From the NCBI RefSeq assembly GCF_003334785.1, contig NZ_QOWV01000043.1: a stretch of 5,588 bases of DNA; one strand, 5' to 3'. The translations under genes and the position numbers were made by a program. The notes under the pieces were generated by a model. The model did not search any database, had not been told where the DNA came from, and saw nothing but the letters and a program-made list of their open reading frames with translations. This document shows, piece after piece, positions 122-5,286 of the stretch. The first letter of the stretch is position 1. Each line of letters opens with the position of its first letter. The DNA is from Escherichia coli. Its GTDB lineage: Bacteria > Pseudomonadota > Gammaproteobacteria > Enterobacterales > Enterobacteriaceae.

Positions 122-1141
122 TTACTTCCTTCGCTTGTGTTCAAGATATTTCTCTGTAATCAGCATTTCAAAAAACTCTCCTGTTCTCAGACCGTAAACA
201 GTTCTGAGCTCATCAAGCATTTCTTTCACATTGCTTCTTATATGTATATTAATGGCCTTTTTACCATCACTCCGATATTTTTCCTTTTGTTTTTTCTGAT
301 GCCAGGCATGATTTATTCGTGTTCTGAACAGTTCAATGGTATCAGGCACTTCTTTCCATAAAGCAAAGGCGACAAGAGAGGCAAGATAATATTCTTTCGT
401 TGAAGATGGTATGAACCACCGGGTCACTGGGTTATGTACCGGATGTGTTTCATCCTGTTTTTGTTTCAGTCTTGTCCAGAACCACTGACACATTTCATCA
501 TCGTCAGGAAGGAGCCACTTAAACTTTTGACAAGCGCTTTTCTTTTTAAGCCACGCCTGCCTGAGTTCCTCGAGGTATATGCTTTTTGCATTTTTATTAA
601 TTAAAGAATGGCAGGAGTCAAAATATGAAATGATTACTTTTATTCGTTCGTTATGGGATGATGGATTATCCGGAAGGTTACTTTTTTTGTAAGTGTTTAA
701 CGTTTCATCGGTAACTGTTCGTATTTTTCTGACTTCAATTCCGTTTTTTATTCCTGATGAATTATGGTTTATTTTCGGGAAATTTGTATGATCTTCCTTC
801 GACAGATAAATAGTAGTCCAGGTAAAGAAAGTCGCAAGTTCGTCAGTTTTCAACCAGAGAAAACTCTCTTCAGGCAGTATTGCCTGCCCTGCAATAATTT
901 CAAGTTCATTAATTTCTTTGCTGAGAGTTTCTTCTGCAGTCGAACCAAAAACACCAAAAGAATTGTTTGAAGCTTTATAATACTTTTCTTTTAAAAACGA
1001 ATTAACATTTCTGATACAGTTTTGTGGGTTGTCAGGCGCAAACTGAGGGAATTCATTGGGGTATTTGTGATTCAGATATTCGGCATAAAACCGACATTTA
1101 CGGGGATCTTTGCATTTGATAAGCATCTGTTCGTTATTCAT
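122..1141 (-). CDS. Hypothetical protein, 339 aa; Cys-containing N-terminus and a C-terminal ribbon-helix-helix-like segment (by-eye inference)
   Basis: A 340-codon open frame in AT-rich DNA (about 32% G+C in a hand-counted sample at 601-660), where stop codons are frequent, so it is unlikely to be chance. ATG at 1139-1141 is preceded by GGAG (reverse complement of plus 1149-1152) with a 7-nt spacer. The terminator at 27-68 follows the stop. C-terminal residues KAINIHIRSNVKEMLDELRTVYGLRTGEFFEMLITEKYL show a strand-helix-turn-helix pattern reminiscent of Arc/MetJ/CopG/NikR N-domain. No catalytic motif recognised. Confidence 0.8.
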   Translation of the reverse strand: MNNEQMLIKCKDPRKCRFYAEYLNHKYPNEFPQFAPDNPQNCIRNVNSFLKEKYYKASNNSFGVFGSTAEETLSKEINELEIIAGQAILPEESFLWLKTDELATFFTWTTIYLSKEDHTNFPKINHNSSGIKNGIEVRKIRTVTDETLNTYKKSNLPDNPSSHNERIKVIISYFDSCHSLINKNAKSIYLEELRQAWLKKKSACQKFKWLLPDDDEMCQWFWTRLKQKQDETHPVHNPVTRWFIPSSTKEYYLASLVAFALWKEVPDTIELFRTRINHAWHQKKQKEKYRSDGKKAINIHIRSNVKEMLDELRTVYGLRTGEFFEMLITEKYLEHKRRK

Positions 1142-1470: not shown

Positions 1471-1546
1471 TTATGTTTTGGTTTTGTTTTATTGTGTGGT
1501 TGTGAATGTTGTGTTTAGTTTGATGGTTGAGAAAGAAAAAAGAAGA
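1471..1546 (+). repeat. 76-nt cytosine-free GT-rich tract ending in an 18-nt purine run
   Basis: By direct reading there is no C on the plus strand between the c at 1470 and the c at 1547. The tract is rich in tgtt/ttgt/gttt units and ends with gagaaagaaaaaagaaga (1529-1546). The minus strand is correspondingly G-free and CA-rich. Confidence 0.6.
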
Positions 1547-2152: not shown

Positions 2153-2267
2153 GAAGATGTGTTATATCATCTATTTAAGCAATAAGTTTAATACAGATTT
2201 CAGAAGATGTGTTGGTGAGTTGATGACTGATTTTCAGAGGGGTATGGGAAAGTGTATGGGATCCCAT
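2153..2267. repeat. Short direct repeats plus a 12-bp perfect palindrome
   Basis: gaagatgtgtt occurs at 2153-2163 and again at 2203-2213 (11 bp, 50-bp spacing). gtatggga occurs at 2242-2249 and 2254-2261 (12-bp period), the second copy running into the perfect palindrome atgggatcccat (2256-2267). Confidence 0.5.
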
Positions 2268-2438
2268 AAAGAAAAAATCGTTATTGTTCAGTTGACGTAT
2301 ATTTCCGGGTGATGGCTCCAGTCAGCAGAACATGTGTTTTTCGATGAATGACCCAATAACTTTTTCGTGAATTTCCACGGAGCGTGAAAAGCAAATCGTT
2401 TTTCGGTCCAGTCGTTTGATGCGGGAACGGAGTGTCAG

Positions 2439-2723
2439 ATGGTGGTGCTCAATACGCCGGGTAAATATCAATACGATTTGAGGAACCATTTGCTGGTTAA
2501 TCTCTTTCCGATAGCATTGGATGCAGAAATAACTACATCCAATGTAAATAAGCATCAATTGCACAGAAGCAATATACCTGCGGCCCTCTCCGGAAATTCC
2601 GGTATCACTGACTACGTACCGTTTTCAGCAGAACGAAATGCGGCGATGGTCATTTGGCGGACAGCCATAGATAGCCGTCCGGCTGTGTGTAACGATGAGG
2701 AAGGAACCCCGGGAACGTTATGA
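2439..2723 (+). CDS. Hypothetical 94-aa ORF, convergent with the 190-aa gene (uncertain)
   Basis: ATG at 2439 preceded by GGAG (2429-2432) with a 6-nt spacer. It lies in a G+C-normal segment, and its translation looks more protein-like than the overlapping minus-strand ORF 2322..2564, which is Cys/His/Arg/Ile-heavy. Its stop at 2721-2723 is 1 nt from the stop of the 190-aa gene (2725-2727). No recognisable family. Confidence 0.3.
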   Translation: MVVLNTPGKYQYDLRNHLLVNLFPIALDAEITTSNVNKHQLHRSNIPAALSGNSGITDYVPFSAERNAAMVIWRTAIDSRPAVCNDEEGTPGTL

Positions 2724-2724
2724 A

Positions 2725-3297
2725 TCAACAGGCGTATAACAGGTACTCGTCAATCATCAGTTCCAGCTCGCGCTTTTCCCGTTTGCGCGCCACAGCCCAG
2801 TTTTCAAGCTCTGCATGTGATTTATGCTTTAACTCTTCAGTCCAGGGCTGCATGGAGTGGGCACACATCAGATCATACCAGCACAGCCATATTAGCGTGT
2901 GGTAGAGATCACGATCGTCGAAACGCCGGAGCAGGCTGTTCAGCCTGTTTGCCAGCCGGCTTTCGCCCAGACGATGTAGCTCACTGAGTAAAACGCCGCC
3001 CAGATTAAAATGCGTAAGCAGCATGATTTCATGGGTCTGAATGCTGGTCATTAACCCTTCCTGAATGGCAGGAATGAACGGTGGCGTTCCCGGGTTGACG
3101 ACCTGATAGAGTCCCTGTGGTGCCACTGAGATGATGGTGCCTTTTTCCGGTAGAAAAAAGTGGGCCAGGGTCAGGCGGTGATAACCATGAAGATGCGGAG
3201 AGCCCATTCCATGAGCGACAATAAACCGGGTTACACTTGCCATCCATTTCTGATGCTGAATTAGCAGCAGATCACACCGGTTTTCAAGTTTTTGCAT
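2725..3297 (-). CDS. Hypothetical protein, 190 aa, likely co-transcribed downstream of alpA
   Basis: ATG at 3295-3297 preceded by AGGAG (reverse complement of plus 3306-3310) with an 8-nt spacer. It starts 85 bp after the alpA stop on the same strand, with no terminator visible between them. G+C resembles alpA. In enterobacterial islands the gene after alpA is often annotated as an inovirus Gp2 / YfjJ-YagK-type protein, but I cannot confirm that from sequence memory. Confidence 0.75.
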   Translation of the reverse strand: MQKLENRCDLLLIQHQKWMASVTRFIVAHGMGSPHLHGYHRLTLAHFFLPEKGTIISVAPQGLYQVVNPGTPPFIPAIQEGLMTSIQTHEIMLLTHFNLGGVLLSELHRLGESRLANRLNSLLRRFDDRDLYHTLIWLCWYDLMCAHSMQPWTEELKHKSHAELENWAVARKREKRELELMIDEYLLYAC

Positions 3298-3382: not shown

Positions 3383-3589
3383 TTACGGACGGGATTGTGC
3401 AATACGCGCCTGCAACCAGGCTTCCACTTCACTTTTCAGCCATCGGGAGCTGCGGCCGAGTTTGATGGGGGCCGGAAAGGCACCATCTTTGATGAGCTTA
3501 TAAAACCACTTATCGGTTAAGCCGGTCAGTTGAGTGATAAACGCCATGTCGACCATCTGGTCATCCATCAGCGAAACTGGGGTCTTCAT
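3383..3589 (-). CDS. alpA: AlpA-family phage/island transcriptional regulator (excision activator-like), 68 aa
   Basis: Translation MKTPVSLMDDQMVDMAFITQLTGLTDKWFYKLIKDGAFPAPIKLGRSSRWLKSEVEAWLQARIAQSRP carries the characteristic AlpA/Vis-type helix-turn-helix signature (LTGL...Y.LIK.G.FP.PIKLG..S.RW...EVEAWL). ATG at 3587-3589 is preceded by GGAGG (reverse complement of plus 3599-3603) with a 9-nt spacer. Size is typical of the family. Confidence 0.88.
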   Translation of the reverse strand: MKTPVSLMDDQMVDMAFITQLTGLTDKWFYKLIKDGAFPAPIKLGRSSRWLKSEVEAWLQARIAQSRP

Positions 3590-3971: not shown

Positions 3972-4763
3972 TTATTCTCTGTAATTACAAACAACAGTGA
4001 TCTGATCCGGTTTTTTTACCGTTACGGGTTTCCGGGGATCAATTTTATAGACCGGGGTAATGACCACGCCGGAATTTATGGAGAAAAGCGGGATCCAGCA
4101 ATAAACGTCCGGATATTTCTGTGTCTCCGGAATACCTTTTGCGCCAGAGGCCATCAGATCTTTAACGCTCACGAAAAATGACTGCCGCAGATCAAAAAAG
4201 TACTCGTCATATATCACGTCTTTTGCCAGCAGGATGACTGCATTACCAACAGCCACTTTTACAGGTGTTTCGCCCGATGGATTATCGTGATTGTATATTG
4301 TTCTTTCGATATAAATAAAACAGGCATATTTCGTCTTCTCCCCGGATAGCTGCATCTGGTATTCGCAAATGTCTTTGATATACCGACTTTCAACCCTTCC
4401 AATCATCTTATCCCGGCGATAGTGTCTTTTATGTTTCAGCGCGTACAGAACACCATTTGAACTGTCAAACTCCAGGACTCTTCTGGTGAAAAGTTTGTTT
4501 TCCCAGATTTCCAGACAATACTTCTCTGCACTGACGACATTGCGTTTGCGAGGAAGATCCCGTTGATACACTCCATTTAATAAGCGTGACTGCAGTTCGC
4601 CTGCAAGTTGATAATAACAGTTAATATCGTTAAGGACAGGTGCTGTGGCGCTGAGTAATGCGTCGATTACCTTAGAGCGCGAAAGTTTGTGGGTATGACA
4701 GTACTCATCCACAATTCGCAGCGTCTCATCACTAGTCATATTGAAAGTTATACGTGTTGTCAT
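3972..4763 (-). CDS. Hypothetical protein, 263 aa; N-terminal ribbon-helix-helix DNA-binding domain fused to a C-terminal domain of about 220 aa with unknown function
   Basis: A 264-codon open frame (about 43% G+C in a hand-counted sample at 4201-4260). ATG at 4761-4763 is the first possible in-frame start, since an in-frame stop lies 6 codons upstream. N-terminal residues TRITFNMTSDETLRIVDEYCHTHKLSRSKVIDALLSAT match a strand-helix-turn-helix RHH pattern (compare the NikR N-domain RVTITLDDDLLETLD...). No obvious Shine-Dalgarno: the upstream sequence is aacagaaaacttcatcATG. Confidence 0.75.
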   Translation of the reverse strand: MTTRITFNMTSDETLRIVDEYCHTHKLSRSKVIDALLSATAPVLNDINCYYQLAGELQSRLLNGVYQRDLPRKRNVVSAEKYCLEIWENKLFTRRVLEFDSSNGVLYALKHKRHYRRDKMIGRVESRYIKDICEYQMQLSGEKTKYACFIYIERTIYNHDNPSGETPVKVAVGNAVILLAKDVIYDEYFFDLRQSFFVSVKDLMASGAKGIPETQKYPDVYCWIPLFSINSGVVITPVYKIDPRKPVTVKKPDQITVVCNYRE

Positions 4764-5086
4764 GATGAAGTTTTCTGTTAATCATATTGGTTGATATGCA
4801 TAACATTCCATAAAAAACACTGTTAATTCATATAATTAATTTTTTTGTGTGTTTTTTCCTTGAGTGGTAGAAAGCAGGGTTACTGCCACTGTACTCAGCA
4901 TAACTCTATCACATAGAACCACAGAAAATGAAGCATTGCTCAGGGGGGAGGTACTTATACGAGTTCTCTGAACCGTGATAACCAGTATTTTTCATGTTGG
5001 GTGATTTGTCGTTACAGCTACAGGCAGTTCATGTACTATTAAAAAATAATTAAGGTTAATTAGTATTATTTATAGAAGTATGGTTA

Positions 5087-5286
5087 TGTAAATGAACCCT
5101 GTAATTCCACCTTGTAACCCAATCCTGTAGACGGATCTCTCATAAAGATATGCTCATAGAAGTATCTGTACAGAGATATTCTCTGTAGTAGTACTTGTAA
5201 CTCTGTCCTTAACTCTCTCTGCTGTAATGTAATCTCGTAACACCTGAATATAAATCTGTCATGTACACACACTGACTGTAATGTAC
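5087..5286. repeat. Cluster of TGTA-core short repeats (candidate operator or iteron array)
   Basis: About eleven TGTA/CGTA-core motifs in roughly 200 bp: ctgtaat at 5099, 5222 and 5276; ttgtaac at 5112 and 5195; ctgtag at 5125 and 5183; ctgtaca at 5166; tgtaca at 5262. The 10-mer ctgtaatgta recurs at 5222-5231 and 5276-5285. The cluster lies 320-520 bp upstream of the 263-aa gene start. Confidence 0.45.

Follow-up and report, generated by a model that had tools for sequence, protein, structure and literature searches.

A 76-nt cytosine-free tract in an Escherichia coli island spacer is probably a recent, clade-specific compositional extreme

The window analysed here, a stretch of 5,588 nucleotides of Escherichia coli DNA, shares 99.9% identity with E. 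coli chromosomes and forms part of a chromosomal island with every gene on the minus strand. Read along that strand, the island carries a YagM-family gene (3972-4763), a gene for an AlpA-like excisionase-type regulator (3383-3589), a 190-aa ORF (2725-3297), the remnant of an IS1 transposase (2322-2468, minus strand, from the RefSeq annotation of matching loci), a long spacer, the gene for a RepB-like regulator of 339 aa (122-1141, minus strand) and, outside the window, genes for a YeeP-like GTPase and the Ag43/Cah autotransporter. An hha paralogue is found nearby in the same horizontally acquired island. NCBIfam and Pfam gave only weak matches for the neighbouring proteins, and a search of the literature found no report on this locus.

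The spacer, which reaches from the IS1 remnant to the 339-aa gene (1142-2321), is 1.18 kb long and AT-rich (66% A+T), and its plus strand is skewed in both base pairs, with 450 T to 325 A and 247 G to 158 C. Of 5426 complete E. coli genomes, 246 carry it, on the chromosome in every record listed; no more distant paralogues of it came to light, searches for plasmid and phage homology found none, and its sole locus among species-representative genomes is a mis-binned E. coli contig. A contig from a metagenome-assembled genome labelled Collinsella sp. (L008, JAIJJM010000108.1) bears this segment of the E. coli island, with 99% identity in the 339-aa protein and 96% identity in DNA over 2.4 kb, and is most likely a binning contaminant. 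No feature is annotated within the spacer among the RefSeq E. coli matches listed, and none of its small ORFs is intact in all of the 17 alleles described below. A described RNA family, which the first-pass annotation of this DNA had thought worth looking for, did not emerge either, as a scan of the whole window against Rfam 15 on both strands returned no match at E <= 1.

Variation is unevenly spread along the spacer. Its least variable block lies at 1840-1930, where pi is 0.03-0.05 and thus below that of the fourfold sites of the adjacent gene. A perfect AGGAGG is present on the plus strand at about 1883-1888, and the next ORF that opens with ATG, 30 aa in length (1905-1997), begins at a distance of 16 nt and is unbroken in no more than 12 of the 17 alleles. 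The segment 1640-1740 is hypervariable, with pi reaching 0.35 when gaps are included and a 26-nt deletion in strain MEI2A.

The gene that follows the spacer is labelled in annotations as a transcriptional regulator, as RepB or as a hypothetical protein. The C-terminus of its product shows a weak similarity to RepB-RCR_reg (PF10723, E = 0.21), and distant homologues of the protein have precomputed matches to PF10723. The best sigma-70-like promoter for this gene occupies 1184-1212 on the minus strand and matches the consensus at 10 of 12 positions, with a -35 hexamer TTGATA at 1212-1207, a 17-nt spacer and a -10 hexamer TAAAAT at 1189-1184. Between the two hexamers sits the palindrome AATCACTNAGTGA (1194-1206), of the form AATCACT(T/G)AGTGA, which is invariant among the E. 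coli alleles and in Yersinia, Rahnella, Edwardsiella and one metagenome contig, whereas its flanks diverge. The palindrome resembles an operator and is possibly a site of autoregulation. At the other end of the gene, past its stop codon, a GC-rich hairpin is predicted on the minus strand (42-56) and is followed by the T-run TTTTGTCTTT; this arrangement looks like an intrinsic terminator that would part the 339-aa gene from the GTPase gene. Given the promoter-like site, the palindrome and the terminator-like hairpin, the 339-aa gene appears to be a self-contained unit, which would lie wholly outside the tract that is the subject of this work. The plus strand at 28-59 is a T-free run, and this segment forms a 52-nt A-free or T-free run in several alleles. 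The 339-aa gene is frameshifted in STEC434, F5656C1 and HY220605 (L002, L009 and L014), and the GTPase gene of TW10722 is broken by an IS100; the regulator-GTPase module is decaying in some lineages.

Within the spacer, upstream of the regulator promoter and 259-334 bp from its -35 hexamer, lies a tract whose plus strand was said in the first-pass annotation to lack cytosine from 1471 to 1546. A recount by script agrees, with 35 T, 22 G, 19 A and no C over these 76 nt and a C at either border (1470 and 1547), and the minus strand is correspondingly free of G. The tract consists of a GT-rich part (1471-1528) and, at its 3' end, the 18-nt purine run that had also been described, GAGAAAGAAAAAAGAAGA, at 1529-1546; its A+T content is 71%. 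When the window is scanned by script for runs that lack any one of the bases, this is the longest, and the runners-up, of 60 nt at 5037-5096 and 48 nt at 1264-1311, are both C-free as well. The first of these is very AT-rich and lies in non-coding sequence past the YagM-family gene; loci from E. coli and metagenomes that cover this part keep it, at 54-60 nt. The plus strand is broadly C-poor over 1201-1350 and 1451-1550, where C counts range from 4 to 11 per 100 nt.

How surprising such a run is depends on the background against which it is set. At the C frequency of the whole window (18.8%), (1-p)^76 is 1.3e-7, and at that of the spacer (13.4%) it is 1.8e-5; among mononucleotide shuffles, a C-free run of at least 76 nt appears in 0.08% for the whole window and in 0.125% for the spacer. 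Such a run is therefore rare in a single window, with a shuffle p of about 1e-3 per window. Extrapolating these shuffle figures to the ~900 windows of a 5-Mb genome, composition alone would be expected to produce roughly one comparable run per genome.

To follow the tract among related loci, we aligned the window with 16 homologous E. coli loci of 85-100% identity, giving 17 alleles, and added 34 copies from metagenome contigs that were retrieved through an invariant flanking pattern, giving 51 copies and 27 distinct variants. The tract is free of C in 22 of the 51 copies, all of them closely related window and 042 types that form one clade; likewise, zero C is seen among the 17 aligned alleles in the window and 042 types only. 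The other 29 copies carry one to three C, placed at nine different columns of the tract. The comparison with homologues, by which the first-pass annotation had proposed to judge the tract, thus largely goes against it: the strict absence of C is lost, and only its scarcity is shared, as every variant is C-poor, with 0-3 C per ~76 nt (0-4%) against ~10 expected at the spacer's 13.4%. A C-poor ancestor and ~10% divergence are enough to account for the C-poverty of all homologues. The ancestral stretch was itself already C-poor to this degree, which weighs against the reading favoured below. Within the purine run, a 15-nt core does not vary across the 17 aligned alleles, the only ones on which this can be judged, as the pattern that retrieved the metagenome copies includes the core.

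The step that completed the run can be traced to a single position. The T at 1528 on the plus strand bridges the purine run and a C-free run no longer than 57 nt. This position is a C, in the context GGTCG, in 15 of the 27 distinct variants, and parsimony on an NJ tree marks the T as derived in the window/042 clade; with C in the majority and T derived, the window's 76-nt run arose by one C-to-T transition. The lineage of MIN10 and L032 retains C at 1528 and has independently acquired a C-free run of 78 nt with shifted borders, which may point to a local propensity for the loss of C. The length of the tract also varies, through an 11-nt tandem duplication, TTTTAGTTTTG, in the EC1515-type allele, a 6-nt deletion in STEC434, deletions of 1 nt and, in the 042 allele, one extra T.

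Tests of constraint have low power here and counts of changes by parsimony are rough, since the alleles recombine and their divergence is only ~10-15%. Within these bounds, the tract ranks with the spacer's more variable parts: pi is 0.112 over the whole tract, 0.125 in the GT-rich part and 0.069 in the purine run, compared with 0.085 for the whole spacer, 0.058 for the promoter-proximal 109 bp and 0.063 for fourfold sites of the adjacent gene. Even the purine run is thus no less diverse than fourfold synonymous sites, and we see no detectable purifying selection on the primary sequence of the tract, as far as an alignment of alleles can tell. A generic constrained non-coding element would be expected to look otherwise, as pi of the tract exceeds that of fourfold sites and its defining property is lost in homologues.

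The pattern of substitution accounts for the skew of the spacer as a whole. Rough parsimony counts over the spacer give 56 C>T, 51 T>C, 70 G>A and 66 A>G changes, equivalent to per-base rates of 0.35, 0.11, 0.28 and 0.20, respectively. These rates predict a C/(C+T) ratio of 0.24, against 0.26 observed, and a G/(G+A) ratio of 0.42, against 0.43 observed. Since the rates reproduce the observed ratios, the excess of T over A and of G over C on the plus strand is a spacer-wide feature that is upheld by the substitution pattern. Within the tract, three T>C gains are counted against ~4 expected at the spacer-wide rate, and selection against C in the tract was rejected on this basis.

Relatives in other genera place the tract in a wider frame. 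Homologues of the 339-aa protein with 48-59% identity are found in Edwardsiella, Rahnella, Yersinia and metagenomes, and each of these distant homologues sits in a syntenic island with a GTPase gene next to it. In every relative an unannotated spacer of 0.6-1.6 kb precedes the RepB-like gene (L017, 3912-5000; L019, 3444-5000; L022, 3624-5000; L025, 4436-5000), and beyond the distant spacers YagK/YfjJ-like and AlpA genes are encoded on the other strand. An nhmmer profile built from the E. coli spacer aligns only over the gene-proximal 140-200 bp, which include the promoter and the palindrome; cross-genus homology ends ~170 bp upstream of the ATG, short of the tract. Neither the profile nor a comparison of spacers found a counterpart of the tract in the Yersinia, Rahnella and Edwardsiella relatives. 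A 13-mer shared with a Yersinia spacer, ACATTCACAACCA, was dropped when the profile search lent it no support. On the gene-sense strand of the relatives' spacers, the longest G-free runs measure 36-43 nt, roughly as composition predicts, and three of four distant spacers have more C than G on that strand.

Taken together, these observations speak against the proposal that the strand asymmetry of the tract reflects a selected single-strand function, given the C in 29 of 51 copies, a pi above that of fourfold sites, the indels and the lack of a cross-genus counterpart. We interpret the tract as probably a recent, clade-specific compositional extreme in a fast-evolving spacer, any activity of which would be generic, and not as a dedicated element. 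We envision that the plus strand is T- and G-rich across the spacer through substitutions of the kind that reproduce the skew among alleles, and that the ancestor would already have been poor in C over a stretch of up to 57 nt. The C-to-T change at 1528 would then, in the window/042 clade, have joined this stretch to the 18-nt purine run and so yielded 76-77 nt without C. Presence of C would carry no penalty, to judge from the nine C positions in other alleles, a drift at least as fast as the synonymous rate and the tolerance of indels. At the level of DNA, the tract may be one portion of the AT-rich sequence ahead of the regulator promoter, of the kind that H-NS silences, as its composition suggests. 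At the level of RNA, if the minus strand is transcribed, whether by read-through out of the operon upstream or from spurious promoters, the product would be G-free and unstructured with 29% C; it could offer Rho a loading site and so lead to termination of untranslated transcripts.

The last possibility deserves closer attention. The minus-sense RNA of the tract contains 22 C and no G (46% A, 29% C), its MFE is 0 kcal/mol and 95% of its ensemble is unfolded, which bears out the earlier expectation of a G-free RNA that would be unstructured if transcribed; the plus-strand RNA folds no better than shuffled sequence. With slightly shifted borders, the 78-nt minus-sense segment 1554-1477 holds 23 C and one G, and no segment on either strand of the window exceeds this difference of 22, which stands 3 sd over the mean. 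It ties with a second stretch of minus-sense RNA rich in C over G (2185-2262, minus strand, 26 C and 4 G), which lies upstream of the tract on a read-through transcript. The rut sites of Rho-dependent terminators, such as lambda tR1 and trp t', are among its nearest known parallels. The tract shares with them a length of ~76-78 nt with more C than G, depletion of G, lack of structure, a setting in untranslated acquired AT-rich DNA and a more structured segment next to it; unlike them, its RNA is A-rich (46% A) with 29% C, its regularly spaced C number five as against six, and it is not conserved. On these grounds the tract is plausible as a candidate Rho entry site, of a generic kind, for transcripts that read through or start spuriously.

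A stronger version of this idea holds that the tract is a rut site maintained by selection to insulate the downstream regulator-GTPase-Ag43 module. The transcripts concerned would be untranslated minus-strand read-through from the operon of the AlpA-like gene and the 190-aa ORF and from the IS1 remnant, or would stem from spurious starts; Rho would load on the tract and terminate within the GC-richer, hairpin-forming 100 nt that follow, ahead of the regulator promoter. RhoTermPredict describes rut sites as ~78 nt long, unstructured and with more C than G, looks for six C each 11-13 nt apart and places a C/G of at least 3 at only few predicted sites (PMC6407284). The size and composition of the tract fit this description (PMC6407284), with a C/G above 1 in a ~78-nt window and little or no secondary structure, but the best chain of regularly spaced C has five members, not six (re-implemented regex, 78-nt windows over the tract). 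Criteria of this type are moreover unspecific, yielding 23,930 predictions in K-12 (PMC6407284). In the minus sense, the 150 nt downstream of the tract fold at -30 kcal/mol and contain GC-rich hairpins that could pause polymerase; however, they lack the pause element GGN8YG, and their main hairpin is not maintained among alleles. No intrinsic terminator is predicted to separate the 190-aa ORF from the 339-aa gene, and promoter-like sites are present on the minus strand upstream of the tract, at 2080-1971, but these occur at chance frequency (7 found against 6.2 expected in shuffles). All alleles keep the bias, with 21-27 G and 0-3 C on the plus strand, yet alleles with one to three G in the minus-sense RNA exist and the G-free state itself is thus dispensable; the sequence of the tract shows no detectable constraint, and a read-through transcript would encounter the equally strong stretch at 2262-2185 first. 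We consider selection of the tract as a rut site unlikely.

Two structural candidates in the vicinity were tried and set aside. A conserved pause or terminator hairpin at about 1409-1429, in GC-rich sequence, loses its base pairing among alleles and has no T-run. An inverted repeat (1445-1458/1555-1568, z = -1.3) that would hold the tract in a large loop loses one arm to an 11-nt deletion in the Eco889 group.

The argument can be widened from this locus to the family. It is conceivable that the island family deliberately keeps long untranslated spacers skewed toward C over G on the gene-sense strand, in which case the tract may be the strongest of several Rho-loading sites that together insulate the autoregulated RepB-like regulator and the GTPase-Ag43 genes from AlpA/integration read-through; the G-free state of the 042/O104:H4/ETEC types would then be an improved allele. 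We doubt that this is so.

The tract could instead act as DNA, as an upstream element of the regulator promoter that, being AT-rich and containing T-tracts, would bind H-NS or a similar silencer, or would bend the DNA, and thereby set the expression of the 339-aa gene, a reading to which we assign a small probability. H-NS is established as a silencer of AT-rich horizontally acquired DNA, and the locus offers a 71% A+T tract within a 66% A+T spacer, 259-334 bp from the -35 hexamer, in an acquired island with an hha paralogue nearby. In its AT-rich non-coding spacer, its hha paralogue and its promoter-like hexamers at chance frequency, the island resembles H-NS-silenced islands. However, binding by H-NS is independent of any strand-specific absence of a base, and the missing C on one strand is therefore not required. 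Phased T-tracts or periodicity are absent, the block shared across genera stops ~170 bp from the ATG, short of the tract, and the tract itself belongs to the more variable portions of the spacer.

That the tract is non-coding, as the first-pass annotation held, is borne out on both strands. The minus strand contains no G and thus offers no ATG, GTG or TTG start and no Shine-Dalgarno sequence, and the open frame of the plus strand keeps the same start and stays unbroken in no more than 7 of the 17 alleles. The plus strand could still be taken to encode a small hydrophobic peptide akin to the type I toxins, of which the Ibs, Ldr, TisB and Hok types are known examples, with the GT-rich part as transmembrane segment and the purine run as charged tail; in the 042 allele the peptide would be MFLVLFYCVVVNVVFGLMVEKEKRRL, of 26 aa. 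This 26-codon frame of the 042 type (L007) lies within 1473-1552 on the plus strand. One plus-strand frame is indeed open over 27-50 codons in 13 of the 17 alleles and ends in a conserved TGA, with the putative product ...VLVLFYCVVVNVVF(S/G/V)LMVEKEKRRL; the 6-nt deletion of STEC434 is a multiple of three, and changes in the frame number ~5 synonymous and ~9 non-synonymous (hand count from alignments). Against this, the ATG exists in the 042 clade only, where the extra T creates it, and the window has only a TTG; neither start is preceded by a Shine-Dalgarno sequence, and the conserved start and ribosome-binding site expected of a small protein or type I toxin ORF are thus missing. A TGA closes the frame in the Eco889 group, and the 1-nt and 11-nt indels shift it in other alleles. 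The peptide is absent among 15 billion collected proteins and carries no PGAP annotation. A hydrophobic-then-charged translation is expected of any GT-rich sequence joined to a purine run, and an open frame of 25 codons has a chance probability of ~0.2 at this composition (our own calculation). The likeness to type I toxins thus comes down to one allele class that could encode 26 aa, a hydrophobic part joined to a charged end, while the ribosome-binding site, a conserved start, an unbroken frame and an identified antisense RNA partner are lacking, and we regard a coding role as very improbable. A mini-ORF past the purine run, ATGATGCACTAA, was likewise discarded, as the deletion in the Eco889 group turns it into a different ORF of 10 codons.

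Least credible of all, and scarcely to be entertained, is that the tract is a decayed or active slippage-prone simple-sequence repeat without function, a reading that overlaps the one we favour save for the origin of the C-poor stretch: the length polymorphism among strains (the 11-nt duplication, the additional T of 042, the 1-nt and 6-nt deletions) and the low-complexity, GT-rich composition recall microsatellite contingency tracts, but there is no repeat unit or periodicity (Tandem Repeats Finder finds none even at a score of 30; in autocorrelation no lag from 1 to 16 reaches significance, lag 5 coming closest at z = 1.3), point substitutions make up most of the variation, and, unlike microsatellites of that kind, the tract lies outside genes and core promoters.

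The reading of the tract as a clade-specific compositional extreme carries a general caution, namely that a striking run free of a single base can arise from strand skew and one transition without marking a signal. Should the rut reading nevertheless be true, it would add one more example of Rho and H-NS policing acquired islands and not a new principle. More promising leads at this locus are the operator-like palindrome shared by four genera, the apparently self-contained RepB-like unit and the persistence of 0.6-1.6 kb spacers in front of it.
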